Counted from the stretch's first letter, positions 14,577 through 52,683 are shown. The stretch is DNA of 64,000 bases from an uncultured Chloroflexia bacterium (GCA_963774265.1 CAVZDU010000006.1:64001-128000), one strand, 5' to 3'. The notes: generated from the letters alone by a model not told the origin. A program made the numbers and translations.

Positions 14577-14601
14577 CGCGCCTCTCCATGCAGCCTTCAA
14601 C

Positions 14602-14713
14602 CGTACGGGCGGTCCTATCGTACGGGCGGTCCTATCGTACGGGCGGCCCTATCGTACGGGCGGCCCTATCGTACGGGCGGCCCTATCGTACGGGCGGTCC
14701 TATGTGACCGCCC
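14602..14713. repeat. Six tandem 17-bp units CGTACGGGCGG(T/C)CCTAT ending in a REP-like hairpin
   Basis: Units start at 14602, 14619, 14636, 14653, 14670 and 14687. The last completes GTAC-GGGCGGTC-ctatgt-GACCGCCC (14688-14713). Confidence 0.9.
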
Positions 14714-14762
14714 CGCCCTGCAACCCCTGAGCCCGCGCCCGGCGGGCTTCAAGTTTCTTTCT

Positions 14763-15479
14763 TCAAGGCACCACCAGTCGGAGCATATCGCCGTTTTTCA
14801 GTCCGGCGGCGTTCGACTCGTCGGTGTCGAGATGAATTTCGGCCCGCCAGCCTTCGCGGATGCGGATCAGCACGCCGCGGTAGGTGGTGGGACGGGCGCC
14901 GTCGATGACGGCGTCCACCAGGTCCCCTTCCTGCAGTCCCAGCGAGGCCGCTTCGGCCGGGTTCATGTGCGCATGGCGCCGGGCGATATAAGCGCCGCCG
15001 CCCTTGCCGCCGGGCAGAACGACCTGGCCCTTGGGCCCCACCAGAAGAATCTGCTGGCTGACCGGGTCGGCGCCGCTCTCGGCGACGCCTAGCTTGAGCC
15101 CCAGGCTGAGGGCGTCGGTTTGGGACAGCTCGACCTGTGAGATCGGGCGCAGCGGAATGAGAACGGCCACACCCTCGAGGCAGCGACGCTTGCCGACCAC
15201 CAGGACGCGCTCCTGGGTCGCGAAGTAGCCGGGCTGGTATAGCTCCTTGAACGTCTTCATCTCGTAGCCCTCGCCGAACAAGATGTCGACGTGCTCGCGG
15301 CACAGGTGCATGTGGCGGTTCGACACACCCAACGGCACCATCATCTCGCGCTTATCGCCGTTCACGGGGGCAACCGCGGGAGGTGCGCCAACCATCATGC
15401 GGCCCAAGACTTCGCGGACGATCGCCTCCAGGCCGGGCTGCGCCGTGGTAGCCTCTGACGATTTAACCATCGTAACCAT
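14763..15479 (-). CDS. pduL: Phosphate propanoyltransferase PduL with N-terminal encapsulation peptide
   Basis: GVSNRHMHL, LYQPGYFA, SQVELSQTDA, IARRHAHM, EIHLDTDESNAAG; N-terminal LEAIVREVLGRM. Confidence 0.93.
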   Translation of the reverse strand: MVTMVKSSEATTAQPGLEAIVREVLGRMMVGAPPAVAPVNGDKREMMVPLGVSNRHMHLCREHVDILFGEGYEMKTFKELYQPGYFATQERVLVVGKRRCLEGVAVLIPLRPISQVELSQTDALSLGLKLGVAESGADPVSQQILLVGPKGQVVLPGGKGGGAYIARRHAHMNPAEAASLGLQEGDLVDAVIDGARPTTYRGVLIRIREGWRAEIHLDTDESNAAGLKNGDMLRLVVP

Positions 15480-15500
15480 GATCCCTCCGCTGCGGACCGC

Positions 15501-16073
15501 TTAGCGCTTGAAGTGAATGCAGAGCCGGTGAAGCTGGCCCGGCTGACGACGGCACGCCGGGTCATTGCACAGGTTGCAGGTGGCGAGCGTCTCGACCGCC
15601 GGTGGCGCAAGTATCTCGACTGGCGGCGGCGCAGGCGTCTCGACCGGTGGCGGCGCAGGCGTCTTGACCGGCGGCAGCGCCGGCGTCTCGACCGGTGGTG
15701 GCGCCAGTATCTTGACTGGCGGCGGCGCCGGCGTCTCGACCACCGGCGGCGCAGGAGCAGCCTGTTCGATCGTCAAGGGTCTCGCGGGGCCACGATCGAC
15801 CTGGCCTATGATCTGCTCGGTGTTCTCGTGGGGGTGGGGAATGATGTGCCAGGAGAAGATCTTGCCCACGCGGGACGCCGACGCTACGCCGGCCTCCACC
15901 GCAGCCTTGACAGCCCCCACATCACCGCGCAACTTCACAACGATGAGCCCACCGCCCCTGGTCTTCTCGTAGCCGATCAGGATCACATTGGCGGCCTTGA
16001 GCGCCGCGTCGGCTGCCTCAATGGCAACGGGCAGCCCGACCGCCTCGATCAATCCGAGTGCCTGCTGTGTCAT
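15501..16073 (-). CDS. pduK: BMC-H shell protein with Pro-rich linker and C-terminal Cys-rich domain (PduK-like)
   Basis: [24 protein letters not shown]...[10 protein letters not shown]...HIIPHPH; tail CNLCNDPACRRQPGQLHRLCIH. Confidence 0.8.
   Translation of the reverse strand: MTQQALGLIEAVGLPVAIEAADAALKAANVILIGYEKTRGGGLIVVKLRGDVGAVKAAVEAGVASASRVGKIFSWHIIPHPHENTEQIIGQVDRGPARPLTIEQAAPAPPVVETPAPPPVKILAPPPVETPALPPVKTPAPPPVETPAPPPVEILAPPAVETLATCNLCNDPACRRQPGQLHRLCIHFKR
15588..15755 (-). repeat. Seven in-frame 24-bp repeats encoding (P/L)APPPV(E/K)(T/I)-like octapeptides
   Basis: PAPPVVET PAPPPVKI LAPPPVET PALPPVKT PAPPPVET PAPPPVEI LAPPAVET. Confidence 0.9.
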
Positions 16074-16552
16074 GCCAGCCCCCTCCGTTCCAAAACACGG
16101 GCGATAGCCTGTACGAGTGCACCCGACGCCTTGCCGGGCTGAATCGATGCTGGCGGGCCGCCAGGCAGCGGCGCCACTGCCTCCAGGCGCAGCGGCATGC
16201 GCTTCACAAAACGCCCCGCATTGCTGCCCGCCATGCGGCAGACCTCTGTCGGCGTGCCGTCCGATCGCCACTCCCAGACCGGCTGTCCGGCCGGCATGTG
16301 CGCCTCATGCAGCAGCACCTTGTCAGCCCCCACGCCCACGCCCACACCCAGCCTGGAGGCCTGCGCCGCATCGTAAGCAGCAGCGACCAGACCCTGGACG
16401 CCCGCCGGCGCCAGCCGGCAGGGCACCCCTTCTTCCTCGGCGCCGACCTCAACCCACCGGAAAAGGTGGGGGTCGACTCCCGGCGCCAGCACCACATGAA
16501 TCGCCGGGCTCTCGGCGAGCGCCTCACGTTGGTAAACCGGCTCGGCGCTCAT
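16070..16552 (-). CDS. pduH: Diol/glycerol dehydratase reactivase beta subunit
   Basis: GAEEEGVP, AAQASRLGVGVGV, R.AGSNAGRFVKRMPL; directly downstream of pduG. Confidence 0.88.
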   Translation of the reverse strand: MSAEPVYQREALAESPAIHVVLAPGVDPHLFRWVEVGAEEEGVPCRLAPAGVQGLVAAAYDAAQASRLGVGVGVGADKVLLHEAHMPAGQPVWEWRSDGTPTEVCRMAGSNAGRFVKRMPLRLEAVAPLPGGPPASIQPGKASGALVQAIARVLERRGLA

Positions 16553-18387
16553 ACAAGCCCCGCTTTTTTGCGCTCGAAGTAATTGATCACCAGTCCCGTG
16601 GCCACCGCATTCACCGGACCCTCGGTGCCCCGGACATTGGCTGATCCGACCACGACGCCATAACTTCCCAGATGCCGTATCAGCATCTGCGGCAGCTCGA
16701 AATCCAAACCCGAGCCGCCGACGATGACCACGAAATCGATCAGGCGAAGGTTACCGGCGGGCGCAACGGCGCTTAAAGCGCGCAGAGCGTTGCGCAAAAA
16801 GACCTTCTGCTTCGCCTCCTGGCGCACCTGCCGGATCCGCTCCATCGTGTGGTTCCCCGGGATTGGCACCAGGCGCTCACCCTGGATGGTGGCCACACGG
16901 CCGTAGAGGCGCGGGTCCAGCGGCTCGTTGAAAAAGCGGACGGTATTGTCCTCATTGCGAATGTGAAACAGGCTCTCTACCTTGGCCAGCGGGTAGCGCT
17001 TGATCTCCTCAGCGGCTTCAAAATCCCCCAGCCCCAGCTCGCTGTTGATCAGCAGCGTCACCATATTGCCGGCGCCGGCCAGATGCGTGGTGCGCACCGC
17101 CTCGCCCCGGCGCAGCAGCGCCGCATCAGTGGAGCCGGCCCCCAGGTCCAGCACGGCCAGCGGCGCGTCGGCGCCTGGTGTGGTCAGCGCGCCCAGGATC
17201 GCCATGTTGGCTTCCACGCCACCGAGCTCCGTGGGCACATGTATCTCGTCGATCAGCGCCCGGGCCACCCGCTCCATCAGGAGGCGATCGGTATTCACCA
17301 TGGCGGCCAACCCGACGGCGTTCTCCAGGGAGAATTCCTGGGCCACGCCGCCCGTCACTCGCTGCGGCACCTGGCAATCGACCGCCAGCACATCGCGGAA
17401 TCTTGATCTCCTCGACCGGCTTCTCAGTCAGATCGCCCATGGTCTGCCGGATACGACCGATCATGCCGCCGACGTTGGTGCCCGGCTCTCCCGACACATC
17501 GCGCAGCGGTGCGACATGGGCGATGGTGTCCATCACGGCGTCGGCGCCGAGTATCCAGGCTGACCGGTGCGGAGAGCCGCTCCCCCGTCAGCGTCAGCGT
17601 GCCCGCGGGAATGCGCCGGGTGCGGACCTCGCCTGCCGGTGTACGAATCACCACCGCCGAGCGCAGGCCGATCAGCGCCTTGGCGATAGGGATGATCAGT
17701 GTCGTTTCCTGTGGCGACAGGCCAAACAGGCTGGCGATGCCGTAAGGGTTGCTCAGCTGGCGCACAGACTGTCCCTGCGGGGCCACCTCGACGGCGGCCA
17801 TCATGTTAAGGGGCACCCGATCGATGTGCGCCACCTCATCCACGAAGGGCAGCGGCTGTCGCAGCCGGTTGGCGATCAGCACCCCGTCGTCCCCCTGGAC
17901 GATCCCTCCCTGGACGTCGACGCCGGCCTCCAGGGCCCGGCGCAGCATCTGGGAGACGATTTCGAAGTCGTACTCCCTGGGAATGACCACGATGACCCGA
18001 TCGGCGCGTGTGGCCGACACCAGGTCGCGAATGTGGGTCGTGCGGCCAACGCCCAGTCCCAGGCCGCCCGGCGAGACCGGGTTGTGCCCGATCATCGTCG
18101 ACTCGGTGACCAGGGTCTCGGTGATGGTCTCCATGGCGATGTCGCCGATCACCGGCGTCGCCTCATTCAAGAGCACCAAACGAGACGTCTGAAGGGGTGA
18201 GCTCGATTGCCTGGGTGGCCCGGCGCAGGGCATCCACGATGCCCGGGATGTTGCGCACGGTCCCCTTGATACCTGTGGTGGGAACGCTGGCGGATGCCAG
18301 GAACCTCGGCGCGCTGGCGGCTGAGATGTCAGCCAGCGCCACCTCGGTGGTGGCGTTCCCCACGTCGACTCCGGCAATCAAACGCAT
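16549..18387 (-). CDS. pduG: Diol/glycerol dehydratase reactivase alpha subunit; about 3 frameshifts
   Basis: Pieces MRLIAGVDVGNATTEVALA / LNEATPVIGDIAMETITET..ESTMIGHNP / LRDVSGEPGTNVGGM / LAVD..VP..GGVAQEFS.ENAVGLAAMV..DLGAGSTDA..GPVNAVATGL. Confidence 0.9.
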
Positions 18388-27609: not shown

Positions 27610-30600
27610 CTATCGTCGTATCAGCGGCAGATAGAGAAAAGCCTCGACGTCCAAAGTGGCTGACGCGGTGTTGTTGGTCTGCTCGATCTCCGCGGTATCG
27701 CTGGCGATGGCGGCAACGGTCGTCAGCGTCGTGCCGAGTGCGACAGACGGCGCTACTTGCAGGGTGGCCAGGATCGTAGCCGGGCCGCTCTGGCCGGCCA
27801 GGTCGCCCACATCCCAACGCAGATCGGGTGTCGTGGCCGCGGGTGGCGGGTCCGCGCTGATGAGCGCCAGCCCGGGCGGCAGTTGCAGGGTGACGCGGCC
27901 GGCGCTAGCGGCCACGCCGCCCCGGTTGCCGTAAGTGACCACCCTGACGATCTGCTGCCCCGGCAGGGCCTGGCCCGGGCCGGATTGGCTCACCCAGGCG
28001 TCGGGGTGCGCGGAACCCACCGTCACCTCGTCGAGGGTTACCCAGGCGTGCGCGGCGCCGCCCGCGTCGATGAGCCTAAAACGCAAGGTAACGCTGCGGC
28101 CCGCCCACGGCGTCAGGTCGGCCCAGGCGTGCGTCCACGCATCGGCACCTGTGTTCGCCGAAAACACCACAGTCGGGGAGACGCCGTTGTCCACGACCGC
28201 CTCCAGGCGGCTGTTCGAGGAAGACTCGGCGCCGAAGCGGTGAAGGAACGACAGGGTCGGCGCAGACGCTGCAGGGGGAATCTGCAGGGCTTGTGACAGG
28301 ATCGCCTCCCCTGCAGCGGATGCCGGCGCGGGACCGGCGACCATCACAGTCCAGGTCTGGCCACTCTGTGACACCCACAGGGCGTGGGGTTTTCCGGCGC
28401 CATCGAGCAGAAGCTGCGGCTCCAGCTGGCTGTATGGGCCCTGATAGACGTCAACGGGAAGTGACCAGCCGCCGGCGGGCCCCCTTGCAGCATGGCGGAC
28501 CAGCGAAGCCAGAGAGTTGGCTTGATTCAACTCGCTCCAAAGCACATGAACGGCAAGGTCGTCGCTCACGGCAATGGCTGGCAGCGCGTAGTATGAAGAC
28601 TGTGTACTGGGCGGGGCAAGCCCGACAGGCACGGACCAGGCCCCGTTTACACGCGCGGCGTAACGCATCTGCAGCGCGGACCATGCGGCGTTCCAGACCA
28701 GGTGCACGCCACCCAGCCTGTCCACGGACATTGCGATTTCCCAGCCCCCGCGTGACTCAGTCGGTTTCTCCGTCGAAGTCCAGGACCCTCCGGAAGGCCA
28801 CTGGCGGTACGACACGCCCTCATGGTCAATCCACGCGACGTGGATCGTGCCCTGCGAATCGACGATCAGGTCCGCGTCATTGAAGTTACCCTGCGAGAGA
28901 TTCACGGCCGGCAGCCACACGCCATCCGTCTCGGCCGCATAGAAGAGGTTTGCGTTACCGGTGTCATCTCTACTGCGCCACAGCACATGGGCTCGCCCCG
29001 CGGGATCGGTGGCGATCCGGGTCCAGTTGTCGGTGTCATCGGCAGAAAGCTTTAACTGGGCAGTCCACATACCGCTCGGGTCGCGCTGGCTGAAATACGG
29101 GGGATAGATTCGATTGTATGGGCCCCACTCCTCGACCGACCAGACCACCTTGACCACGCCTCCGGCGCCCATCGCCAGTCCTGCCCCGCTCCCGGCCGCC
29201 TCGGTCCCAGGGATTCTTTCTGAAGCCGACCATCCGGACCCCGCAGGTTTGCGGCTGTAATACAGGCCGCGGGCGCCGCCTCCGAAAGCCACAAGACGTG
29301 GAGGGTTCCCGCGTCATCTATCAGCAGTCGGGGCTGGTCGCCGGCCGGGTCGGGGAGCGGCTCGGGAACGGCCCACGACCCCGCGGGCGGCTTGCTGGCG
29401 GCCATGACGTGGCCGTCTGGCCCGATCCAAATCGCGTGCATGACTCCCGCATAGTCGATAGCGAAGTCCGTGAAGGCGGACATCGCCGGGCTGGCCAGGG
29501 TTGTCGCGGGTCCAAACTGGCTGGATACGGCCCCCAGCACGGCCGCGGAAGCGCCGGAATGTTTGACGGTATTGGTGATGGTTGCGGTCAGGCTCCCGGC
29601 AGACTGCCACGAGTCACTGCCGCTCTCGAAACCCCAGTTTTGTACGACGTTGTCCGCGGGCGGCAGCACCAGGTCCACGGCCGCATCCTCGCCCCCGCGG
29701 AAGGCCGTAGAGGGCAGACTGCCATAACCAGCCTTGCTCCAATCGACGGTGTAGGCATCCGCCACGTCGACCACGTAGGCGGCGTAGACGCCGGCCGCAT
29801 CGCTGGACGCGGCATGCAACGACGCAGGCGCGGTTGTCACCGCCATCCCCGTCACCGGCGCGCCCCGGTTGTCCGTGGCATTCCCCGCGACCGCCCAGGT
29901 GTAAATCATGGTTGTGGCGTCCACGCCGCTTGCGGGCCAGGACTCCTCGTTCCCCGCGTGATCGATGCCGCGCACCCTAAAGCTGCATTGCCTGCCGGCC
30001 CATTCGCTGAAGAGCGCGGAGGTATCGGTTTCTCCCAGAGACCAGTACGTCCAGGCGCCGTTGTCCACGCGGAACTGCACCTCGTAACGTTGAATGCCCG
30101 AACCCCCCGGGTCGCTGCCACTCCAACGGACCGGAATGGGGCTGCGACTGTAGGGCGGCAGGGGCTCGATCGCGGTCTCAGGCGGGAGCGCCTCGACCGT
30201 TGTCCGGGCATCGTAGTCTGCCGGCCAGGCTTCGACATTGCCGGCATTGTCCCTGGCGCGCGACCGGAAGTAGTAGGTGCGTCCCCCGGCGCCCGGATAC
30301 GACGCTGATCGGTCGGGGGTTGCGATCTGCCAGTCCATCCACGCGCCGCCTGAGCCGACCCTGACCTGGACGTCGAAGCTGGCGACACCCGCCGGGCCGA
30401 CATCCGTTCCGGACCAGCTCACAGTGAACGGTCCGGGCGACTGGGCCGGCAGCGGCTGCACGCTGGATGTTGGCGGTTGCAGCTCGGTTGGCTGCCAGTC
30501 AGGGTGCCAGTCACTGCCGTTCGAGCTCAAGCGCACGACACTGCCCGGATCGGTGCGATCCCAGGCATCCAGGTGCCCTGTCGTCCAGTACCAGCTGCCG

Positions 30601-31550
30601 CCCTGCTGGACGAATGAGACACGGGTGAACGCAACATAGCGTCCGTCCGGCGACCAGCTCCGGACCCAGGCGTCGGTGGTGGCTTCCGGCGGCTTGTAGA
30701 CCTGGCGCTGGTTGCCGCCCGCCGCATCCATCAGCCAGATCTCCTGCCAGTTGTCGCCATCGCCGTCCGCGTCATAGGCGATCAGAGTGCCATCGGGCGA
30801 CCACGCCGGGTATTCGCTGTTGGTTTGATTGGAAAGCTGCCGCGCACCGCTCCCGTCCGCATTCATCACCCAGATGCGATACTCGTCCCCGCTCCGCCGC
30901 GTGAACGCGATCTGCGAGCCGTCAGGCGACCAGGCCGGCTCACCATCGTAGTCGTCATGGTAGGTCAGCCGCGTCTGGCCGCTGCCGTCCGCATTCATCA
31001 CATAGATCTCCGCCTGACCGTCGCGGTACGACTGGAACGCGATCCGGCCCCCATCCCAGGACCAGGCCGGATAGGTGTCATTGGCGCCGTCGTCCGTATA
31101 CCGGGTCAAGCCGCTGCCGTCCGCATTCATCACGTAGATCTCGTAGTTGCCGGCGCGATTGGACGCGAAGACCACGCGCGTGGCCCCCCGGTTCAGCCGT
31201 GGATGAATATCCATGCTTTCGTGGTTGGAGATGTTGACCTGCTCCGCACCGTCTCCGCGGGCGCCGTAGATCTCCCAGTCATGCTGGTTGCGGGCCGACT
31301 GGAAGACCAGCCGGGTCCAGGCCGCGAACTCCGGCGCCAGCGGCGCCCGCGCCGCGTCCGGCGCACCGGCGGCCTCCCCTGCCGGCAGCCACGTGGCTGC
31401 GGGCAGGCCATCGTATGACAGCCGGCCGGCGGGCGGCGGTGGCTCCTGGCGGGCCAGGGCCGTCGCGGGCGAGAAGCTGCCGCACAGCAGGCCGGTCGTG
31501 AGGACGAAGATCAGTGGGATAGCGTAACGCCTGGAGAGCCGGGTGAACAC
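27610..31550 (-). CDS. Large secreted protein: TolB/PD40 beta-propeller, two FN3-like domains, second propeller-like repeat region, DUF11-like domain, C-terminal YLPLIRR; frameshift near 29295
   Basis: Signal-peptide-like N-terminus; EIYVMNADGSG and PAWSPDG repeats; YYFRSRARDNAGNVE; GxxHxxW repeats; ends FLYLPLIRR. Confidence 0.8.
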
Positions 31551-34704: not shown

Positions 34705-36144
34705 GTAACTGTTCAGCGTTACCCTTGACAGGGTGTGGCATGATTACGACATGACCGGGGATGAAGCGCAAGCCTTTGGGTATTTGCGAGCGGAGAATGC
34801 GGCGTTGCGGCAGCAGTTGGCGCTAGCTGTGGCGCGGATTATCGAGCTAGAGGCGCAACTGAACCAGCGCGGTGAGCCGCCGCCGTTCGTGAAGCCGAAC
34901 CGGCCGCAGCCGACGGAGCCCAAGGGGCCGCGGAAAAAGCGGGCGGCGGCGCACAACACGTCCCGGAAGCGGTCGCAGCCGACGCGGATTGAGCGGCACG
35001 TGCTGGAGCATTGTCCGGACTGCGGCTATCGCTTGCGCGGCGAGAGCATCGCCTACACCCGGGAAGTGATCGAGTTACCGCCGCCCCAGCCGGTGGACGT
35101 GATCGAGCATCAGGTGCTCAAGCGCTGGTGTCCACATTGCGCGACGTGGCACAGCCCGAAGTTGGCTCTGGGCGGTCAAGTGATTGGGCACGGGCGGATC
35201 GGGGTGCGGGTGGCGAGTTTGGTGAGCTATTTGCGCACGACGTTACGGCTGCCGTTTCGTTTGATTCAGAGCTATCTGGCGACGCTGCACCACTTGCAGT
35301 TGAGTGTCGGGGAGATCGTGGAACTGACCCATGCCGTGCGCCAGCAGTTGCAGCCGCAGGCCGATCAGCTCAAGGTGGCGCTGCAGACCAGCACGGTGAC
35401 GCATGGGGATGAAACGGGTTGGCGGGAGGCCGGTCAGAACGGCTACGCCTGGGCCTTTGTGACCGCTGGGCCCGCCGCGGTGCGCTACTTCGAGTTTGCG
35501 CACAGCCGGGGTCATCTGATTGCCCAGCGCATTTTGGGCGCTGACTGGCGGGGTTGGTTGGTGACCGACTTCTATGCGGCTTACAATCTGATCCCCGGGC
35601 GCCATCAACGCTGCTGGGTGCATCTGCTGCGCGATCTCCACGACCTCAAACAGGCGCAGGCGGATAACCTGACAGTCGTACAATGGGCGACCGACGTGCG
35701 CCAGCTCTACGACGAGGCCCAGGCCTGGCTCGCAGCACACCCAGCACCGCCGCTGGCGGAACGGCGCACTGCGTACGCCGACCTTTTCACCCGGGCCTGT
35801 CGCTTGGGCGAGCAGTATGCCCTGACCTATGCGCATCCGTGTTGCACCCTGGCCAAACGTTTGCTGCGCCACCAGGACGAGTTGTTCCAGTTCATCTTGG
35901 TGCCCGGGTTACCAGCCGACAATAATCTGGCCGAGCGCAGCATTCGGCCGTTGGTCATCATGCGCAAGATCAGCGGCGGCTCCCGCAGTGAGGAGGGCAC
36001 GAAAACGCGCTTGACCTTGGCCAGCTTGCTCCATACTTGGGCCGCCCGCAACCTCAATCCGTTTCTGGAATGCTATGCGGCCCTCCGGCAACCGACCGCC
36101 ACCGCACCTCCATAAACTTCCTTACCCGAACGGTGAACACTTAC
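34705..36144 (+). mobile_element. IS66-family insertion sequence, single-ORF (ISBst12-like) type, 1440 bp
   Basis: TIRs GTAACTGTTCAGCGTT / GTAAGTGTTCACCGTT (14/16 identical); perfect 8-bp TSD TACAGCGA at 34697-34704 and 36145-36152. Confidence 0.93.
34733..36115 (+). CDS. IS66 DDE transposase (TnpC)
   Basis: Coiled coil, CPDCG..CPHC zinc finger, HGDETGW, LVTDFYAAY, QRCWVHLLR, DNNLAERSIR. Confidence 0.93.
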   Translation: MWHDYDMTGDEAQAFGYLRAENAALRQQLALAVARIIELEAQLNQRGEPPPFVKPNRPQPTEPKGPRKKRAAAHNTSRKRSQPTRIERHVLEHCPDCGYRLRGESIAYTREVIELPPPQPVDVIEHQVLKRWCPHCATWHSPKLALGGQVIGHGRIGVRVASLVSYLRTTLRLPFRLIQSYLATLHHLQLSVGEIVELTHAVRQQLQPQADQLKVALQTSTVTHGDETGWREAGQNGYAWAFVTAGPAAVRYFEFAHSRGHLIAQRILGADWRGWLVTDFYAAYNLIPGRHQRCWVHLLRDLHDLKQAQADNLTVVQWATDVRQLYDEAQAWLAAHPAPPLAERRTAYADLFTRACRLGEQYALTYAHPCCTLAKRLLRHQDELFQFILVPGLPADNNLAERSIRPLVIMRKISGGSRSEEGTKTRLTLASLLHTWAARNLNPFLECYAALRQPTATAPP

Positions 36145-41383: not shown

Positions 41384-41904
41384 TTAATCGGCGGCGCTCC
41401 CGGCCAACAGAGACTGATAGATCTCGAGATCACGGCGCGAGAAACAGCAGAACACCACTTCCTCCAGCGTCGACGGCCCGGTGAGCGCGTCGCGCACCGT
41501 GTCGACGGCAACCCGAGCCGCCAGCTCGATGGGGTATCCATACACCCCGGTGCTGATGCTCGGGAACGCGATCGAGCGAAGCCCGTGCTCTACAGCAATG
41601 GCCAGGCTGTTGCGGTAGCAGGACGCGAGGAGCTCCGGCTCGCCAGCGCGTGCCGCCATGCCACACGGGACCCACCGCGTGGATGACAAACCGCGCAGGC
41701 AGGCGATAGCCGCGCGTGAGTTTCGCCTCACCGGTCCGGCATCCACCGAGCAGCCGGCACTCGGCAAGCAGCTCCGGTCCCGCCAGCGCGGTGGATTGCA
41801 CCGTCGACGCCACCCCCACCGAGGAGCGATGTATTGGCCGCATTGACGATCGCATCGACCGCTAGGGTGGTGATGTCGGCCTGAAGGGCCCCTAATCTGG
41901 TCAT
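41384..41904 (-). CDS. ymdB: Macro-domain O-acetyl-ADP-ribose deacetylase; frameshifts
   Basis: [33 protein letters not shown]; VIHAVGPVW; [15 protein letters not shown]. Confidence 0.9.
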
Positions 41905-41977
41905 CGAATCGCCTCCTTTCAGGCGCCTGGACAACGCAGCCAACCGGTGGTAGGCTCGTGCGATCCGACCGGCAAGG

Positions 41978-43279
41978 ATGAGTCCCGTGAGCGGACCCAA
42001 AGGCCTCCCGCAGGCTGCGCAGCCTGCCTCGCCGTCCCGAGTGGTGCTCCTGCTCGGAATCGGCACCGCAGTCTCACTGTTGGGGGACAGCACCCTCTAC
42101 ACTGTGCTGCCGCGGCCGGAGATCGCGGCACAGGCCGGGGTAAGCCTGGGCATGGTCGGGGTGCTGCTGGGCGCAAACCGGGTCGTGCGCCTGCTGACCA
42201 ACGGCCTGGCCGGCATGCTCTACGACCGCCTGCCGCGGCGCCGCGTGCTGGCGGCCTCCCTCTTCCTGGGCGCGATCTCCACCCTCATCTTTGCCATCGG
42301 CCGCGGCCCCGGCCCTCTGCTGATCTCGCGGCTGCTGTGGGGCACGGCCTGGTCTGGCATCTGGGTGGGCGGGAATGCCGCGGTGCTCGACGTCTCGTCG
42401 GCCCACAATCGCGGCCGGCTGAGCGGGCAATACCAGATGTGGTTCTTCCTCGGCGCGGGAGGCGCAGCGCTGTTCGGCGGCGTCATGACCGACCTCCTGG
42501 GCTTTCACCGGGGGCTCCTGATCGGCGGCGGCTTGACGGTGCTTGCCGCGCTGCTCTGGCTGCTCGTCCTCCCCGACCTGAATCCGGCGCGGGCAGAAGC
42601 GGGAGGCGCGGGCCATATTCTTCCCGCGAAAGACGGTCCGCCGGGTGAACCGTTTCCCTGGCCGGCCGCCATCTTCACTGCCGTCCCCATGTTCGTGACC
42701 CGGTTCGTTTTCGCCGGGGTCATCACGGCCACCGCCATCCTGTGGCTGACCGGACTGCTGGGCGACGGGCTGTCGCTGGCCGGGCAGGCCGTGCCCATTG
42801 CCACGCTGACCGGAGCATTTGTGGCGCTGCGCGCGCTGTTCGGCGTCCTCGGGGCCAGGGGGGCAGGTCACCTGTCGGACCTGGCCGGCCGTCGTTGGTT
42901 GGTGGCTGCGGGGGTCATGCTGGCCGGCGCAGCAGGCGTCGCGCTGGCGGCAGGCCGCAACCCCCCGGCTGCCCTGACCGGAGGGTTGGTGGCTGCGATC
43001 GCGGCGGGCGGCGTGCAGGCCCTGGTCCCGGCCATCGCCGGGGACCGCATCCGGGCCAGCCAGCGCGGCCGCGTGCTCAGCGTGGTCTACACCCTGGGTG
43101 ACCTGGGCAGCGCGCTCGGCCCGCCGCTGGCCCTGGGGCTGATCCAATGGCTTCCGGCCGCGGCGGCCCCGGTCGCCACCCTTTACCGGCTTTGCGCGAT
43201 CCTGCTGGTCCTCACGGTCGTCTTTGCGCTGTGGCGCGCAGGAGCCGAACGGCAGGGCGAGGCGCTGCGAACCACCTGA
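41978..43279 (+). CDS. MFS transporter
   Basis: About 12 TM segments; motif [12 protein letters not shown] and [10 protein letters not shown]; [15 protein letters not shown]. Confidence 0.88.
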
Positions 43280-43348: not shown

Positions 43349-46300
43349 TCACCGGGTCATGAGCGGCAAATACTGCCATGGCGCGACGACCAACACATCC
43401 AGTGTGGCGGAGTTATTGCCGGGCGCGCTGTCGTTGACGCTTTGCAGCACCTCGGCGTACAGCCGGTGCGGCCCGAGCTCGGTCGGCACCCAGTCAACCC
43501 AGACCGAGGTGCCCTCAGGGTCAGTGTTGCCGGTGGAAACCCGCTTGGACGCGATCAGCACGCCGTCCAGGTCCGGGTCGCCATCGTAGAGCATCACGTA
43601 GGTTGAGTCGAGATTCCGCGTTTCTGAAGTGATCGTGATGCGAACGGGCAGCGGCCGGTTGAGACGCGCCCGGACGCTGCCGGTAACGATCTGACCCTGC
43701 ATGTCGACGGCCGCCACTCCATCTTCCGGCATGCCGACATGGTCCGGGATCACCGCGCCCGGCAGACCTCGCCCGATCCGCGAGACCCTGACCGTGCTCC
43801 AGCCCTCGTTGTTCTGGCCCGGATCGATGCAGGTCCCGTCCAGGCAGTACTCAGGCTCCTCCGTCCCGTTGGCCGGGGTGTCGTAGGTCTCCGTAACGAG
43901 GTTGTCCGGATCGAGTCGCACGTAGATCCGGTACTCCTGCACATTGCCGCCCGAAGCCCCCGTCGTGTCCCATTCAACCCAGGCGGTCACCATCTCCTGC
44001 GAGGGGATCTGGGGCAGGGCGTAGCAGCCGATCTTGTTCGCAGGATCCGACAGCAGGTCGAGCTCCACGCGGTTGGCGTCGTCGAAGCGAATCTTGTAGA
44101 AACAAGCCTGGGCGCCATAGGGCGTCGTCGCGTAGTCTCCTACGCTGTAGTTGTAAACGCGGGTTTCCAGGCGCACGGTTGCGCCATCTTTCACATCGCC
44201 CGGGATATGGTCGTATTCGTTCGTCACCGGGTTGATCAGGCTCGTGCGCACGAAGAAACCGCGCATCTGTTTTCGGCTGGGGAAAGTGTTCACCTGCCAG
44301 TTGTCATCCTGGACGGTATAAAAGCGGGCCGGCAGGTTCAGCGCCAGGTCCGGCAGCTTGTACGTGTCGCGCCAGAAAGTCTGCCCGTAACTGCTCCTCG
44401 TGGGATCCACGGCGAACATCGCCTTGATGGTGCCGTCGGTGGTCGTGTAGATCAATGGATAGAAAGCGTAGGCGTAGATGCTGGCGCCGGGCGTCTGGTT
44501 CAGATAGATCCCGGTGGTTTTGCTGGTGAGGTAACTGCTGGTCGCATTATTGCCCCAACTGTAGTTCCCGTGCATCTCGACCCCAAGCTCTCCGGTCGCA
44601 GTCAGGCCGCTGCCGAAAGCCTCCGCGGTCACCGAGGCCGACTGGCTGATGGAAGCATTTGCGCTGAGCGTGTGGGAGGAGCTGTATTCGGCGCCGGTCT
44701 CGCCCGCCTGTGTGAAGGTGAGCGGCAGCTCGCCGCTGCTCCCGCCGGTTATCCACTCGCTGGGTGGATACATGAATTCGGAGACGACCGTGCCATTCGC
44801 CGCGAACGCGCCCATGTCGGGTGGGGTGACGATGTTCGGGTTGTCGCCGCCGGTGATTTTGAAGCGCCTGGGATACGATAGAATGTTGCCGTTCTCGTGG
44901 ATCGGCTGGTACCAGTCGTAGTCGAGCCCCCCGCCCTTCGTATTCATCGCGACTTCGCCGAACGGGCCCGGCAGCACGATATCGAAGTGCGGATAGACGC
45001 CCGGCGTCTCGGTGGGCAGCCCGTAGACGCGGTAGCGCCAGATATCCATGGTCTGCTCCCGGGCCACGATAATGTCATCGCGTTCGGTCTTGCCGCCGAA
45101 GCTCACTTCCCGCGTCTTATAGCTCTTCTCGTAGCTGCCACGCGCGTTCTGGTAATCGTAGCCGATGGTTGCCGACACCGCGGTGGTCACCGATACCTCA
45201 GCCTTGGCCACGCCAATGTCCCCACCCGCCTTGGCCGTTGCGCTCGCGGATGCCTTCACCGAGCCGCCGACTGCCCACGACGCCTTGTCGCGGGTGTCAC
45301 TGCTGGTCTGTTGCCCCGTCTTGCTGAGCAGCGATACGTTGAAATTGTCGAAGCGGCTGATGTTTTCGATCTTCTTGCCGTCCCAGTAGGCGTGTTTGGG
45401 CGGCTCCTGCAAGATGAAGTCCGCGCTGATCAGCTTCTCGATCGTGAAGTGCACCGGCGCACCCAGGTACACCGTGTCTCCGTCGCTGTCCACGGCACTC
45501 AGCGCCAGCTGGGATCCCAGGGTCGCGGCAAAGGTGGTTGTGCTCTCCACGAAGGACTGGCGGACCGGCGCAGCACCGGGCGCAGTCTGGAATACGGACA
45601 GGTACCAGTTCGTGCCTTGCCAGGTTGCCAGCGCCAGGGACCAGGTTGGGTCGCTCGGTCTGAGCGCGCCACGGAAGCCGCCCGCTGCAATCCGGAACCC
45701 CCCATTCGGGTCCTGGCCCGGCAGCTGCCAGGGCGGGTTCACCGTCGCGAGGAGGTCGGTCTGCAGCTCGATGGTCCTGACTTCGACAACCCCCGGGACA
45801 GTACGATAGGCGACTGCCAGTTGCCGTCGGTTGGCGGTCCAGCCATCGGCCGGGTTTGCGCCGAACTTAAACAGTCCCGCGGTCAGCTCCACCCGCCCGG
45901 TCGCGCCGTCGATGGCGCCCGTCCTGAGGATGATGTTTCGAACGGGGGTGACGGACAGGAAGGCGTCGCCCGTGAACCGGAAGATCCGCACGTTCACGTC
46001 TCGCCGATTCAGCGGCGAGTAGTAATAGGAGGTGGCAATCGCCAGATCGGCCCGGCCATCACCATCGAAATCGCCCGCTGCAGCCGAGAGCGCAGCAAAA
46101 GAACCGCTGGTGTCCAGCTTGACGGAACTCTTGCCCACAACGGACAGCGATCTCGACACCACCACACCTGTGGCCGGATTGCGCGTCACGGTGTAGCGAA
46201 ACACGTCGATATACAGCGTATCGGGTGCAACCACGTATGCCACCGCGATCTCCTGGAGACCATTGCCATCGAAGTCGCCCGTTGCCACGGTCACCACGTT

Positions 46301-47023
46301 GTTCGGAGGGTAGGGCTTCGCGTTGGTGACGTTGGTTGCGACGGGGCTGCCGGTCGTGGAAGCCGTCGCCGATGAGACCGGGGTCGGCGTCTCCGCTGTT
46401 GCGGCGCGGAAGTCGAGGACCGCGACCTGTAAGGGCAGCAGGCCCATCGCGCTCTGCGGCTGGGCATAGGCCACCACGAGCTCATCGCGATTGTCAGCCC
46501 TCTCGGCTTCCGCAGAGGGGATGCCATCCAGGTCCCCGGATGCAATGGCATAGAAATCGGTGGAGCCGGCGAAGCGAGGCGCCAGGTTCTGCAGGGTGTA
46601 AGATGCGGCCGGATGCCCGTAGAACCGGATATCCAGGTTCGTGGCATTGCGGTACGCCAGCGCGACCGAGTCTCGCTCCGGAGTCAGGAAATGCCCCTGG
46701 GCCGCGGCGACCGCGTCGTGCTGATCGGCCGCATCGATGTGCTGGACCTCCTCCTTCAAGGCGAGCGATGAAAGGTCGCTGGCAGCCTCATAAATCCGTG
46801 AATAGGGCGCACCTCCTTCCGGCAGAAGTGGCGTCATCACGAAGATCTCATCATCCGGCCATCGAGCGTAGTTCTCAGCCGGATCGACTGCGCCAGGCCG
46901 CTCCGCCTGGGCTCCGGCTGGCAGTGGAGCTGCCAGCATGATGCAGAACATACAGATGCCGAAGACAAACAGGAGCACGTACGGATGGAGTGCACGCCCC
47001 TTGAACAATAGACCCAGGTTCAT
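43349..47023 (-). CDS. Large secreted FG-GAP/VCBS-repeat protein with Ser/Thr-rich amphipathic beta-hairpins, CARDB-like domains and C-terminal YLPLMTR
   Basis: AAGGAGG before MNLG; signal peptide; SGDLDG, TGDFDGNG..EIAVAY, AGDFDGDGRADLAIA; ILQEPPKH; IYVRLDPDN...E...NN. Confidence 0.78.
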   Translation of the reverse strand: MNLGLLFKGRALHPYVLLFVFGICMFCIMLAAPLPAGAQAERPGAVDPAENYARWPDDEIFVMTPLLPEGGAPYSRIYEAASDLSSLALKEEVQHIDAADQHDAVAAAQGHFLTPERDSVALAYRNATNLDIRFYGHPAASYTLQNLAPRFAGSTDFYAIASGDLDGIPSAEAERADNRDELVVAYAQPQSAMGLLPLQVAVLDFRAATAETPTPVSSATASTTGSPVATNVTNAKPYPPNNVVTVATGDFDGNGLQEIAVAYVVAPDTLYIDVFRYTVTRNPATGVVVSRSLSVVGKSSVKLDTSGSFAALSAAAGDFDGDGRADLAIATSYYYSPLNRRDVNVRIFRFTGDAFLSVTPVRNIILRTGAIDGATGRVELTAGLFKFGANPADGWTANRRQLAVAYRTVPGVVEVRTIELQTDLLATVNPPWQLPGQDPNGGFRIAAGGFRGALRPSDPTWSLALATWQGTNWYLSVFQTAPGAAPVRQSFVESTTTFAATLGSQLALSAVDSDGDTVYLGAPVHFTIEKLISADFILQEPPKHAYWDGKKIENISRFDNFNVSLLSKTGQQTSSDTRDKASWAVGGSVKASASATAKAGGDIGVAKAEVSVTTAVSATIGYDYQNARGSYEKSYKTREVSFGGKTERDDIIVAREQTMDIWRYRVYGLPTETPGVYPHFDIVLPGPFGEVAMNTKGGGLDYDWYQPIHENGNILSYPRRFKITGGDNPNIVTPPDMGAFAANGTVVSEFMYPPSEWITGGSSGELPLTFTQAGETGAEYSSSHTLSANASISQSASVTAEAFGSGLTATGELGVEMHGNYSWGNNATSSYLTSKTTGIYLNQTPGASIYAYAFYPLIYTTTDGTIKAMFAVDPTRSSYGQTFWRDTYKLPDLALNLPARFYTVQDDNWQVNTFPSRKQMRGFFVRTSLINPVTNEYDHIPGDVKDGATVRLETRVYNYSVGDYATTPYGAQACFYKIRFDDANRVELDLLSDPANKIGCYALPQIPSQEMVTAWVEWDTTGASGGNVQEYRIYVRLDPDNLVTETYDTPANGTEEPEYCLDGTCIDPGQNNEGWSTVRVSRIGRGLPGAVIPDHVGMPEDGVAAVDMQGQIVTGSVRARLNRPLPVRITITSETRNLDSTYVMLYDGDPDLDGVLIASKRVSTGNTDPEGTSVWVDWVPTELGPHRLYAEVLQSVNDSAPGNNSATLDVLVVAPWQYLPLMTR

Positions 47024-47200: not shown

Positions 47201-50200
47201 CTACTGCCTGATGACCAACGGCAGATACACTGTGGACCCTGCCGCAGTCCCATAGATGCCGCCGCCGACAATCTCGCCATCGACGCGCTGCACGACTCCC
47301 AATGACGTCGCGTCGCCCGGCGCCGCCCCGAGCTCCAGCCTCAAGGACCCCGACTCCCCGGCGCCCAGCGGGATCCGGCCGAGCGTGGCGCTGATGACCC
47401 CATGACTGCCGGAACTTCCCACATCCAGGAGCACCGCGTTGGTGCCGGGGATCAGCTGCGCACCTGAAAGATCGCCGCCCGCATCCAGCCACCGGCGGAA
47501 GAGGGTGGCATCGCCAAACTCGACCATCGCGGTGCCACCGCGTGGAAAGACCGCGGAATTGAAGCTGACATCCGCATGCGCCGGCGCTCCCTTGGGATTC
47601 GCGATGATGATGGAGCTATCGTGATGTGTGGATTCCGGGTCGAGCACGTGGATGTTGCGTTGACACAGGTTATTATCGAACGGAACCAACCCCTCATACC
47701 TCACAGGGTCTTCCGCTGAGTGCACGCGCGCCAGGAAGCAGTAGTGGCCCGAGAGCGGCGGAATCCATGGCAATGACACGACCGCCGATGCGCCAGGCGC
47801 AAGACTGGCGATGTTGGCCGTGCCGACGGGCGTCCAGCCGCCCGGCCAGGGGATCGCTGCAGCGCCTGCCGCCCAGTACAGGTCGACCGCGATCGAGGTC
47901 ATGGTGGCGGTGCCACGGTTGCGGACCCGGACGTACACGTAGTTCGTTTCGCTGCCGCGAGGGTTCTGATGCTCCTCCACACCATCGGGCAGATAGCGCA
48001 CCCAGATGTCGGGGCTCGCCCACCAGGACTCACCGCGCGTATTCGAAGGGATCGTGCCCGCGTCACCAGGATGGTCCTTGCAGAAGACATCCTTAAGTTG
48101 GGATGTAACCGTCACGCACGCGGGCGGGTAGTCCAGTTGGGCGGGGTTCCCGCTGGAGTTGGTGTAGGTCGCCCGGGTGGAGGCGTTCATGCAGAGCAGC
48201 CCCGCGGGGGTCGTGGCAGGCACCCGCACCCGGTAGCCCACCGTCTTTGTCTCGCCGCGGCCGATCACCGGGAACTTCCAGACGATCGTCTTGCCCGAGA
48301 CGCTGGCGGGGCTCACCGCGCCGAAGAAGGAACCCGGCGTCAATTCCACTCCGGCCGACAAGACGTCCGTCAGGGCCAGATCGATCGCCGGCATACCTGT
48401 CAGCGTGCCCGCGATCTGCGCATAGATCCGGTCAAGCTCATCGCTGGTGGTCGCGTAGTGGTAGTCAGACGGCGAGGAAGCCAGGCCGCGCAGCTCGGCC
48501 TCGTCGATGCTGCCCAGCCCGATGGTGATGATGCGCGTGCCCTTTGCCTTCGCTGCCGCAGCTACGGCCGACGGGCCCGGCCCGACATTATGCTGTCCAT
48601 CCGTCATCAACACGATCACAGGCCGATTGGCGCCGAAGTGCCGGATGCTCTCCAGCTCCTGTTGGGCGACCGTGAGGCCCTCGGTGATATTCGTGCTGCC
48701 ACCCGACGCCAGTGCATCGATCGCAGTGCGCACCGGCCCGGAGGACTGCGTTAGCTGGTGGTCCAATCGTGCCGAATCCCCAAAGGACACGAGGCCCGCC
48801 TGATCGCCTCCGGCGCTCAGGTCCAGCCGATCCATGAAGGCCTTGGCTGCGTTTTTGGCGTCCTGCAAAGGTTTGCCGGCCATGCTGCCCGAGCGGTCGA
48901 CCACCAACATCACATCGGCGTGCCGCTCGCTGACCGGACAATTGTCGCCTCCGGTGACGGTCAGGATCACGGTCGCTTCCTCACCGGCCTTCACCTGCTC
49001 GGGGCTGGCTTTCTTGATCCCGGTGATGGTGCAGACCGGCGAAATGGCCAGCGCATACTCCACATCCGTCTGGACGGCCGCGAGCGCATCCACCCCGAGG
49101 CGCTCGGCCGCCATGTCGAAGCGCAGCTCGGCCGGGAAGTCGCGCACGAAGTTCATGCCGGCAAACTGCTGCACGTCGGCCAGGGAGGAAACGAACCCCT
49201 GGAGTCCCCACAGCGCTGTCGGACCGCTGGCGCTGACTGCATTATAGATATCGTGCGACACGTTCCCGGCATCGTTGTGGACGGTGCTGTCGTGGCCAGG
49301 CAGGTGCGAGGTCAACACGCCATTCAACACTCTGCCGGGAGCGCCGGATTCCGCCTTGTCGTTCAGATTATCGCTGACCGCTATGCGGCGGCCTACCAGG
49401 TCGATGCCTGAGGAGGTGACGAAATGGCCGCCGACCCGCTGCCAGGTCCCGGAATCGTTCGTCCAATATCCGAGCAGCAGGAGGACGTTCTCGGAGCGGG
49501 CGACCTCTTCGGCCACCCATTCGAAGGTGGGCTTCGCCACCAGTTTGACATCGTATTGGGCGCTGAGCCCACGCTCAGCCAGGAGCGCAAGCACCGCCTG
49601 GTGCATGTCCGTAATATAGGTGCCCTCCCACGTGCCGCCGGTGCGCTGGCCGTCCGTATCCATGCGATACGCCAGGTCCGCCACCAGCGGGGGCAAGTTG
49701 CGGGGGTCGTGATCATCCCACACGGTCGCGTTGAAGGATTTCACCAGGGGATAGTTATCGTTGATCGCCGGCGGCAGGACAGGCTTGGGCTCCAGCTTCG
49801 AGTCAAACCACCACAGGCAGTCGGCCAGCGCCAATGGTCCGCAGTAAGACCAGTTGCCCGAGCGCGGATTTTTCCAGTTGTCCTGGCGAAAGTCGAAATC
49901 CGGCACGCCATTCGGGGCGTAGTCGATCCAACCTCCGGCCTTCCAGGTCATGCGCTCCGGTTCGCAGGTGGGGGGCACCGTGATGGTGTCATGTTGCCTG
50001 CCATAGACTGCGCCATCGCCCACCGCCTTGAGTTCGAAGTGATACACACCCGAAGGCGTCCCGGAGGGAACGCAGGATCCCGGACCTTGAACGTGACGGT
50101 TAGCCCGCCCGGAGGAACATCCAGGTTGACGTAGACGGGGGGCTCCGAAGTGATCCACGACTGGTAGGATGCAGGATCCGCGATGAGCTCCAGGCGGGAG

Positions 50201-52683
50201 ATTCGCCGGCTCGCGCTGGTGATCAAACTTTGGATCACCGATGGCAGATTCGCAGCATCGCTGAGGGGCAGCGCGTCGCCTCCGGCATTCGTCCAGCTCG
50301 CCCACTGCTTCCAGTACGTGACCAGGTTCGACTGGCTGGTGCTCCCGCCTCCGCTCACCACATAGAGCAACGTGATCCCCTTGGCCTTCAGCGCGTCCAG
50401 AACGGCCTGGAAGTCCAGGTCGTCCGCCGTGCCCGGTGCGCCATCGCGTCCCGGATCGCGCACGCAGCCGGCCGATGTATTGCCGCACCAGGTGCTTCCC
50501 GGGCTCACAGGCGGGCTGGCCACGCGCTCGTTCAGGTTGTTGTCATGGGGCACATCATCGCCGAACATGATCACGAAGCGCCGGGTGTCGGATCGCCAGC
50601 CGAGGGACGGGTCCGAATAGGTTTCGTAAAGCGCACGAGTGTAGGCTTCGGGATAGTCGTCGCCGCCGCCGGCGCCGGTGGCGTTGATCGCCGCTTCAAC
50701 CGCGGAGCGATCTCCCGTGATGCTCTGGCGGAGCTTGTAGGGCCAGTCGCCCGAGTTTCCATAGGGTGCGATGGGATAGTCCCGCAGGTCCACGACGCCG
50801 AACTGGATATCCGGGATCACCCCTGCCAGATTGGCCATGATGGTGAGTGCGTTGGACTTGGCCGAGCTGAGCACAGAGCCCATGCTGCCGGTCGTGTCGA
50901 AAACAAACAGCACGTCGGCCTTTGCCGGCGCGGCAGGGATGAAGATGGTTTTTGTCTCCTCGACGCACTCGCCGGGACACAGTGTCGCTACAAGATCCGG
51001 CGGGGTGGCGGAGGGGCTTGCTGTCGACGTGGCCGTGGGCGTTCGCGTCGGGGTGCTGGTGACAGTCTGCGTTCGCGTCGGGGTTGCGGTGGGCGTGCGC
51101 GTGGGGGTGTCAGTCACCACCGGCGTGACAGTGCCGCATGTCGGGTCGATGCGAATCGGGATCTCCCGGTAGTCGTTCTGCGTGTTGCTGCAGACATCCG
51201 AGACCAGGATCTGAATCTTGTAGTCACCCGTAGTCGCGGAACCGGGGACCGGCAGCGCGAAGACAAACGGGTCGACGGAGCTGCCATTGATGACTTTGGT
51301 CTGCGTGGACCCGACAAGATTATTGGTGGCCGCGTCCAGGACGTTCACCTCGACCCGCACATCCTGGCTCGCCAGGGTCGTATCCACCTCGACCATCAGG
51401 TTAATCGTCGAGCCGGGCCAGTAGCAGGTGCGATCGGGCGCAGCGGAGGTGATGGATGCCGCGCCTCCTCCTCCGCCCAACACCAGTTGGCCCCAGTTGA
51501 CCGCTGTGCACCACCACCCTTCCGGATCGCCCGGGTCCTCGCAGTTGCTGGTGTTGATGCGAATCTGGGCCAGGTTGGCGCCCGTCCTCACCAGAGACGG
51601 ATTGACATTCAGTACGGTGGTGCTCCAGACTTCGTTGGCGCCTGTCAGTTTGCCGATATTCGTTCCGTTGAGATAGACCTGGTCGACCTCGGCGCAGGTT
51701 GTGTCTTGCTCGTCGACATCGTATACGCTCAGTGAGAGCTGGGCCTGGCTGAAGGCGGGCGGGTTCTCGACCATGAGACGGAACTCGATCGGATGCAGAG
51801 GATCATTGCGGAATATGCATGCGGGGTTTGCAGGGTACATATCGTAGTCCGGAGACCCCGTCCCCGCGTTGTTCTCATTGTCCGCGGTGGTGATATAGCT
51901 GCGCGAGCTCGCGCCGGGGCAAACCGGAGCACTCGTATCGGCGCGCAAGACGACCTCATCGACGTAAGCACCCTCATAGGTGGTGGCCGAATCGCTGCGG
52001 AACCAGAACCCGATCCACACTTGAGGTTGACCGAGCAGGCTCCCCAGGTTGTAGACGTTGGCCAAATCAAACGTGGCCGAATTCCAGCCGTTGATCGCGC
52101 CGGCTTCATTTGTCCAGTCACCATACCAGCAGCGACCGGAGAAATCCTCCCCGTTGACGGAGGCGAACAAGCACATGTCGTCGTGCTTGCTGGCGGGGTC
52201 GTTGACGCCGTCCCATTCTGTCTTGGTCCAGTGGCGGAAAGTCACCTCTGCGGCAGTGACTCCGCTCAGGCTGAACGGTCCGTAGATCATCTGTCCGTTG
52301 GCGCCGTTGGGGTACGGTCCTGGCGGCGCAACCCCCAGGCTACCTGTCAAGGCGCCGTAAGCGCTATAGCTGCCACTGCTCTGCCGGTAACTGGTCCGGC
52401 CCCAGGTCGGATTCCCGTAGAGCGTCCAGCCGGATGCGGGGAAGGTTCCCTCGAAGCCTTCGGTCATCAGATTGGACCAGGCAGCGGGGGCGGCGGAAGG
52501 ACCGGATGGAAGAGGTGCGACTGAGGCCAGACTCTCCAGCGATGCCGAGCCGGGGGCCGATCCTGCAACCGCAGCATTGTCGTGACCGTCCGACCCGAGT
52601 GGCTTATCGGCGGACGCCGGCAGGAACAAGACAACAAGCACCAGGCCGAGAGCGACGAGAGCAAACACGATCCGTGCCTTCAT
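47201..52683 (-). CDS. Large secreted protein with two vWA domains, a putative papain/C39-like protease domain, Ig/CARDB-like domains and C-terminal YLPLVIRQ; frameshift near 50075
   Basis: Signal peptide MKARIVFALVALGLVLVVLFLPASA; MIDAS DVLFVFDTTGSM and DVMLVVDRSGSM; SYCGP...GGHFVT...AVSD; TPT linker. Confidence 0.8.

Follow-up and report, generated by a model that had tools for sequence, protein, structure and literature searches.

We analysed a 64,000-nucleotide stretch of DNA (hereafter the window) from an uncultured Chloroflexia bacterium (GCA_963774265.1, CAVZDU010000006.1:64001-128000) and found that its gene at 43349-47023 encodes a protein of 1224 amino acids (aa) that is best, if tentatively, read as a surface-tethered beta-pore-forming module with two hairpins and a new scaffold. 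A prediction made earlier from the DNA alone (the original prediction) had proposed a pore-former or translocon combining an FG-GAP propeller with two long amphipathic beta-hairpins. The segments and landmarks it quoted proved exact, with hairpin 1 at nucleotides 45277-45152, hairpin 2 at 44674-44555, the sequence ILQEPPKH at aa 537-544 and FG-GAP repeats recognised upstream by Pfam. Five elements are established: the architecture of the protein, the conservation of apolar/polar alternation in its hairpins, the confinement of low model confidence to those hairpins, the size and spread of the family, and the lack of a match to a known family or fold.

The product, a protein of ~130 kDa, belongs to a large uncharacterised family and, judging by its sequence features, is probably exported by the Sec route and sorted to the cell surface. 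Its parts come in a fixed order, namely a propeller head, a middle domain, Ig-like "legs" and a lineage-specific anchor (Table 1). Pfam analysis of the 1224-aa protein identified FG-GAP (PF01839; E=1.1e-09, 38.3 bits against a cut-off of 22.1) and FG-GAP_3 (PF13517; E=3.4e-07, 31.2 bits against 26.9), the AlphaFold2 model of this region is all-beta with a predicted local distance difference test score (pLDDT) mostly above 85, and profile searches of the PDB matched it to UmbA4 (9oee) and integrins; the head is a propeller of the FG-GAP, integrin-alpha type. The C-terminal domains gave PDB profile matches to 2kut, 2kl6 and 3idu (E 0.003-0.018), carry a precomputed CARDB annotation in relatives, and contain a conserved DPGQNNEG motif (aa ~1068-1075). 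The middle domain between them, which bears both hairpins, has neither a Pfam model nor a solved relative, and an NCBIfam scan of the whole protein returned no match.

Two ~40-residue segments of the middle domain are the candidate membrane hairpins, and the original prediction had described near-strict alternation of hydrophobic and polar residues in both. In the single sequence the alternation is not clearly beyond chance: the longest strictly alternating run is 13 residues (aa 587-599), a length reached by 15% of 2000 shuffles, and the nine runs of at least nine residues (shuffle mean 2.4, maximum 8 in 500 shuffles) are an excess expected of any beta-rich protein. On the sequence evidence, the hairpin signal sits at the level of the family. 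A word-indexed search gave 92 proteins at E<=0.001, query included, and the query was aligned with 83 of the 91 relatives, the eight shorter than 900 aa being left out; after three near-identical rows were dropped, the alternation statistics drew on 81 rows with relatives from many phyla. Over these rows the mean hydropathy flips at every column of aa 585-603, 606-620, 790-802 and 807-817, and the four arms take ranks 2-5 for period-2 power among all 16-aa windows of the protein, rank 1 going to a strand of a C-terminal Ig-like domain. Columns of the apolar phase contain 44-58% aliphatic or aromatic residues and 28-37% Ala/Gly (73-86% together) with 3-7% charged residues, and those of the polar phase 35-42% Ser/Thr and 20-46% charged residues with 1-6% aliphatic or aromatic ones. 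Conservation of the alternation in homologues, by which the original prediction proposed to be judged, is therefore retained across phyla. The same holds for the Ser/Thr-rich flanks and aromatic ends it had noted, which are conserved in the alignments: hairpin 1 opens with a conserved W, has a hydrophobic tip (IG-V/I-A) and closes with YDY, and hairpin 2 is bounded by H and SW(G). Hairpin lengths are likewise held within narrow limits across the family, at 35-45 aa (median 42) for hairpin 1 and 32-45 aa (median 40) for hairpin 2. Arms of ~11-19 residues, alternation conserved column by column, conserved lengths, aromatic bases, the hydrophobic tip of hairpin 1, a Ser/Thr-rich polar phase and low charge in the apolar phase all speak for pore-forming stems. 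An origin of the two hairpins by internal duplication was rejected (hhalign probability 16% over 17 columns).

Structure prediction also sets the two hairpins apart from the rest of the protein. The full-length AlphaFold2 model (aa 41-1224, 84 alignment rows) has a mean pLDDT of 84.9 and a predicted template modelling score of 0.83, and shows a beta-propeller, a middle domain of mixed structure and a pair of beta-sandwich domains. In this model, blocks over aa 591-610 of hairpin 1 fall to pLDDT 50-51, helices cover the second arm of hairpin 1 and the YDY region after it (pLDDT 77-87), and hairpin 2 is drawn as a beta-hairpin with arms at pLDDT 72 and 57 and a tip at 51. A second model of the middle domain alone (aa 530-925, 74 rows) has a mean pLDDT of 75.7, with most of the domain outside the hairpins at 70-95 and values below 50 at aa 589-613, aa 801-820 and two short loops. 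Confidence is good over most of the domain and lowest in the two hairpins, which dip to pLDDT 30-57 across the models, and hairpin 1 is rendered as a strand, then a stretch below 50, then a helix, the second arm being helical in both runs despite its beta-type alternation. Because the low pLDDT is confined to the hairpins, these segments are not packed into a confident soluble core; the packing into a soluble beta-sandwich or solenoid that the original prediction had named as incompatible with it was not seen. The partly helical resting state of hairpin 1 in the models hints at alpha-to-beta refolding of the kind known from MACPF/CDC proteins and gasdermins. A two-copy prediction of the middle domain from alignment A3, described below, scored 0.01 against a mark of 0.42 and counts neither way.

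The segments might instead be ordinary strands in a long four-stranded sheet lying on the core, with the failure of AlphaFold2 to place them resulting from shallow alignments (74-84 rows) and insertions or deletions at the tips. The drawing of hairpin 2 as a beta-hairpin at pLDDT 51-72 in the full-length model, the differences in detail between the two runs and the equal period-2 signal of Ig strands are all in keeping with such a sheet. We nonetheless regard it as improbable, given that the same alignments bring the rest of the domain to pLDDT 70-95, that arms of 11-19 residues exceed the usual strands of a sandwich, and that the second arm of hairpin 1 is helical at pLDDT ~72-77 in both runs.

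Comparisons with known folds and families returned significant matches for the propeller and legs only. Foldseek aligned the whole model with integrin alpha chains (E down to 4e-13, probability 1.00), all matches being of the integrin-like propeller or legs. The structural search for pore-forming folds proposed in the original prediction came back empty: with the middle domain as query, nothing in the PDB was matched at E<=0.001, the best match being a secretin (E=0.03, probability 0.03, template modelling score below 0.1), and C. perfringens enterotoxin stood at rank 25 (E=0.33). The elongated beta-sheet fold of aerolysin-like proteins was not recovered in this search, no MACPF, CDC or gasdermin chain was among the matches, and the viral BFVD library likewise gave nothing at E<=0.001. 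Family models agree, as the 1224-aa protein has no match to aerolysin (PF01117) or ETX-MTX2 (PF03318) at E<=1, and Pfam found neither MACPF (PF01823) nor CDC (PF01289) in the protein or in 43 middle domains; gasdermin (PF04598) also had no Pfam match. These 43 middle-domain sequences, taken from genome loci, form the profile that we call A3. Scanning them with Pfam at E<=10 touched Fil_haemagg_2 in five, OMP_b-brl in two and Aerolysin in one (E=0.0044), with PF03318 in none, and the middle domain of the present protein gave 0 families.

Below the threshold of significance, the hints that can be interpreted fall repeatedly on the stems of beta-pore-formers. The full-length profile touched Cry23Aa1 over the hairpin-2 region (E=0.014) and a natterin-like protein over the hairpin-1 region (E=6.8) in the PDB. 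The A3 profile gave four PDB matches at E<=10, comprising two Fab light chains, a phycobilisome linker and the haemolytic lectin LSLa (E=0.083), the last over hairpin 2 and the SWG strand. A profile of hairpin 2 only gave seven matches, namely monalysin (E=0.76), a "Toxin" chain (7y79; E=1.3), LSLa (E=2.6), three lamin-B1 tails and one PEP mutase. Among the 11 matches to a profile of hairpin 1 only, the best apart from antibodies was to residues 311-359 of CEL-III (E=0.49), a range that we take to be its stem, which changes from helix to beta on going from monomer to pore; the others were a Fab chain, ribosomal L27, three thiolases, three spike proteins and two baseplate proteins. Protein-language-model look-ups with this protein and a 42%-identical relative (P0021), for each of which the 30 nearest clusters were examined, returned aerolysin, ETX_MTX2 and monalysin as the only named families, at scores of 0.78-0.83, which, being below 0.9, serve as leads only. 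The hairpins therefore resemble pore stems, a resemblance for which we do not claim homology.

Between and around the hairpins the middle domain holds strongly conserved polar motifs. QEPPKH, DD, DWYQPxHENGNILSYP and the DPGQNNEG of the C-terminal region are invariant or nearly so across phyla at ~30% overall identity, and the residues concerned include K543/H544, D649/D650, H709/E710/N711/N713/S716 and D892. Such motifs could serve in catalysis or in the binding of a metal or ligand, or could make a Lys-Asn isopeptide. They raise the alternative that the middle domain acts outside the cell as an enzyme, or binds metals or glycans, with the polar motifs making up the site and the hairpins serving as lids or substrate loops. 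This would accord with the invariance of the polar residues, with the conservation of the whole protein as one unit and with a family size of 1371 clusters. The alternative has a small probability in our estimation, as no catalytic family was matched in Pfam or NCBIfam, no enzyme fold was matched, and lids are seldom 40-residue hairpins with conserved alternation. Two further assignments were tried and rejected. An alpha-2-macroglobulin-like thioester was ruled out by the lack of a C[GS]EQ motif, and a link to Tc toxins through TcdB_toxin_midC (TcB, PF12255; aa 880-957) was dismissed, its 13.3 bits (E=0.081) falling below the cut-off of 25 and no RHS or SpvB domains being found.

The family is large and widely distributed, with members in many phyla of bacteria from soil, groundwater and sludge. 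An exhaustive search with the A3 profile recovered 1371 representatives of 50% identity clusters at E<=0.001, 1092 at E<=1e-10 and 364 at E<=1e-30, and in the 150 matches listed the middle domain nearly always starts at about residue 500-700 of a 1150-1500-aa protein. A stand-alone form of the middle domain was rejected, since the 13 short members that were inspected have no signal peptide and mostly start inside the propeller or middle domain, and therefore look like fragments or miscalled starts. Among contigs representing one genome per species, 52 loci encode a relative. They belong to Chloroflexota (Anaerolineae, Caldilineales, Chloroflexia), Actinomycetota (Gaiellales, Solirubrobacterales, Propionibacterium), Acidobacteriota, deltaproteobacteria, Burkholderiales, Gammaproteobacteria including the cultured Methylolobus aquaticus FWC3, Verrucomicrobiota, Nitrospiraceae, Phycisphaerae, Balneolales and Flavobacteriales; the nearest named relatives are metagenome-assembled genomes of Chloroflexota at ~50% identity. 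Full-text searching of the literature, judged from titles and the openings of abstracts, returned nothing on this protein family. At one deltaproteobacterial locus, two divergent full-length paralogues lie adjacent on opposite strands (8132-12562, plus; 13334-17557, minus), and a 94-kb contig in the protein database likewise encodes two paralogues (P0020 and P0030); such pairs raise the possibility of two-component use in some lineages.

The C-terminal ends of family members differ by lineage. Chloroflexota members end in YLP- or FLP-type tails, some from Acidobacteriota and Actinomycetota in dockerin-like ends, one Gaiellales protein in SLH, and those of other lineages in a hydrophobic stretch with an Arg-rich end in the style of PEP-CTERM. 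These lineage-specific anchors suggest a tethered rather than freely released protein. The original prediction of a secreted product is supported by the signal peptide, recognised by eye only; tethering was not foreseen in it. A rival explanation builds on the same anchors and holds that the protein is a non-lytic adhesin or lattice protein resembling integrin alpha chains, in which the hairpins are flexible beta-arms for ligand binding or strand augmentation outside the membrane. The alignment of the full model with the propeller and Ig legs of integrin alpha chains favours this explanation, as do the SLH, dockerin, PEP-CTERM-like and YLP-type anchors, the hemagglutinin-repeat model weakly touched in five of 43 members, and the position of the gene beside other YLP-tailed VWA/CARDB surface proteins in this genome. 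It leaves unexplained, however, the strictly apolar faces of 11-19 residues that AlphaFold2 cannot place on the protein and the conservation of arm length across phyla, and the VWA neighbours of this genome recur in only one of the 52 other loci. Overall, we consider the adhesin or lattice protein rather unlikely, if a closer competitor than either the sheet or the enzyme.

Several observations weigh against a pore-former. Alternation is common to any strand with one buried face, and the top-ranked window for period-2 power is an ordinary Ig-domain strand. No similarity to any pore-former is significant, the toxin-like hints are all at noise level beside equally strong unrelated matches and may reflect composition only, and the MACPF signature and CDC undecapeptide, searched as regular expressions, occur in 0 of 216 fetched family proteins. 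The conserved polar motifs are more typical of an enzyme or of a metal- or ligand-binding site, and surface anchors fit retained adhesins better than released toxins.

If the two-hairpin pore-former is nevertheless correct, oligomerisation, refolding, membrane insertion and the target are the parts of its action that we infer. The propeller would bind a ligand on the target surface, and it is the propeller that suggests the receptor-binding role given to the protein in the original prediction. The middle domains of several copies would then associate. Both ~40-residue segments, whose resting state the models render as partly helical or disordered, would change conformation and stretch out into two beta-hairpins. 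Four strands per protomer would in this way join into a membrane-inserted beta-barrel. More tentatively still, the protein may represent the first of a new beta-pore-former superfamily whose members would combine two aerolysin-style hairpins with an integrin-like head, remain tethered to the producer and act on contact. Such contact-dependent pore-formers would be spread among environmental Chloroflexota, Acidobacteriota, Actinomycetota, Planctomycetota, Verrucomicrobiota, Proteobacteria and Bacteroidota.

Table 1. Parts of the 1224-aa protein and their positions in the window.
Feature	Position (nt)	Strand	Remarks
Whole gene	43349..47023	-	1224 codons plus stop, no internal stops; ATG at 47023
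Sec-type signal peptide	46904..47023	-	aa 1-38/40; basic n-region, hydrophobic core, AGA/AQA cleavage sites; assigned by eye
FG-GAP (integrin-alpha-like) beta-propeller	45416..46903	-	aa ~41-536; GDFDGDG calcium-loop-like motifs
Middle domain, carrying both hairpins	44264..45415	-	aa ~537-920, ~385 aa; no Pfam family, no PDB fold match
QEPPKH motif	45392..45409	-	aa 539-544; start of middle domain; nearly invariant
Hairpin 1	45152..45277	-	aa 583-624; arms aa 585-603 and 606-620
DD motif	45074-45079	-	aa 649-650
DWYQPxHENGNILSYP motif	44870..44917	-	aa 703-718; between the hairpins; invariant or nearly so
Hairpin 2	44555..44674	-	aa 784-823; arms aa 790-802 and 807-817, then SW(G) and a Ser/Thr-rich strand
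C-terminal beta-sandwich (Ig-like/CARDB-like) domains	43385..44263	-	aa ~921-1213; strands in AlphaFold2 model, pLDDT ~90
C-terminal tail QYLPLMTR, putative YLP-type sorting motif	43352..43375	-	match to regular expression

The open reading frame (ORF) of the gene remains open 5' of this ATG as far as a GTG at 47173. We place the start at the ATG because the 1224-aa relatives begin there and a typical signal peptide follows directly; three close relatives with 85-87% identity have lengths of 1209-1224 aa. Two VWA-domain genes precede the gene on its strand, and the nearer one (47201-50488) combines VWA and CARDB with a tail that passes both NCBIfam YLP-box models (17.6 against 15 and 15.5 against 10). 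The first ATG past the upstream stop in the 47201-50488 frame gives a protein without a signal peptide, and the other ORF (49948-52683, minus strand; 911 aa, with signal peptide and VWA) overlaps the 47201-50488 ORF by ~540 nucleotides in another frame. The pair at 47201-52683 may be one frameshifted gene or two coupled genes. Clustering of 523 neighbouring ORFs from 53 loci revealed no conserved partner, immunity or secretion gene, the commonest neighbours being LuxR-type response regulators (eight loci) and seven-transmembrane histidine kinases (seven loci), which indicates that the gene is self-contained. This and the signal peptide count in favour of the pore-former.

The YLPL tag noted in the original prediction is substantiated as a motif of the genome, although the tail of the protein itself is not scored by the family models. 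In the 5.5-Mb genome (10 contigs), the pattern [YF]LP[LIVM]..[KR] closes 17 ORFs with a length of 150 aa or more, compared with 0-2 ORFs for twelve control windows moved upstream. This makes the YLP-type tail a true ultrashort C-terminal motif of the whole genome, in keeping with the "YLP-box" idea of NCBIfam. Run on the QYLPLMTR tail, the two models (NF050076 and NF053834) gave 0 families at E<=10, short of their cut-offs. A third YLP-tailed ORF of the window, at 27610-29292 (minus strand), has a DUF11 domain, ends in FLYLPLIRR and overlaps an upstream PD40-propeller ORF (29052-31550, minus strand) in another frame.

Elsewhere in the window, a Macro-domain gene at 41384-42093 (minus strand) runs across three overlapping frames (41728-42093, 41430-41855 and 41384-41767) with two apparent frameshifts, and reflects either a pseudogene or sequencing errors. 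An IS66-family transposase (34733-36115, plus strand) lies 7 kb from the gene cluster.

Pore-forming proteins are grouped in a small number of structural families, to which additions are rare. A two-hairpin pore-former of the kind proposed here would give the known class of beta-pore-formers a new scaffold and would bring together a two-hairpin, aerolysin-style design and surface-tethered delivery. It would also suggest that uncultured environmental bacteria have a weapon or channel so far overlooked, possibly directed at grazers or competitors. Should the pore-forming role prove false, the family would still stand as a large and unexplained group of integrin-like proteins of the cell surface that share a conserved site.

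Of the known systems, integrin alpha chains and bacterial FG-GAP proteins such as UmbA4 share the overall plan of a seven-blade-type propeller, beta-sandwich legs and a C-terminal anchor. Integrins, in contrast, have no equivalent of the ~385-aa hairpin-bearing middle domain, and no partner resembling a beta subunit is conserved beside the gene described here. With the YLP-box proteins (NF050076 and NF053834) the protein shares a C-terminal [YF]LP[LIVM]..[KR], common to 16 other ORFs of the genome and to Chloroflexota relatives; its QYLPLMTR tail fits the regular expression even though the models leave it unscored. The haemolytic lectin CEL-III (PDB 1vcl/3w9t) couples a carbohydrate-binding head to a pore-forming domain, and the stem of this domain refolds from a helix in the monomer to a beta-hairpin in the pore; the likeness lies in a ligand-binding head fused to a candidate stem-bearing domain. 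CEL-III differs in being a soluble protein of 432 aa with one stem and ricin-type lectin domains, its match to hairpin 1 is not significant, and the Foldseek search of the PDB gave no match of fold.

The nearest parallels to the hairpins are found in two groups of pore-formers. Aerolysin-type toxins possess an amphipathic hairpin, Ser/Thr-rich flanking strands and a fused receptor-binding domain. Members such as aerolysin, epsilon-toxin (ETX-MTX2), Cry23Aa1, LSLa, monalysin and natterin-like proteins share with this protein an amphipathic hairpin of ~40 residues with a Ser/Thr-rich polar face and flanks. They have one hairpin per chain, whereas two are present here, in a protein four times larger that also has a propeller head, a surface anchor and strongly conserved polar motifs. 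MACPF/CDC proteins and gasdermins contribute two refolding membrane hairpins per protomer, and the MACPF/CDC fold comprises a central bent sheet and two helical clusters that become the transmembrane hairpins. This group shares with the present protein two candidate membrane hairpins per protomer, each between core strands, but the hairpins here are Ser/Thr-rich in the aerolysin style and there is no family or fold match. By analogy, the logic of two refolding hairpins would be that of MACPF/CDC proteins and gasdermins and the chemistry of the hairpins that of aerolysin stems, with Ser/Thr on the polar face and in the flanks, small or aliphatic residues on the apolar face and aromatic collars, both carried on a scaffold that would be new.

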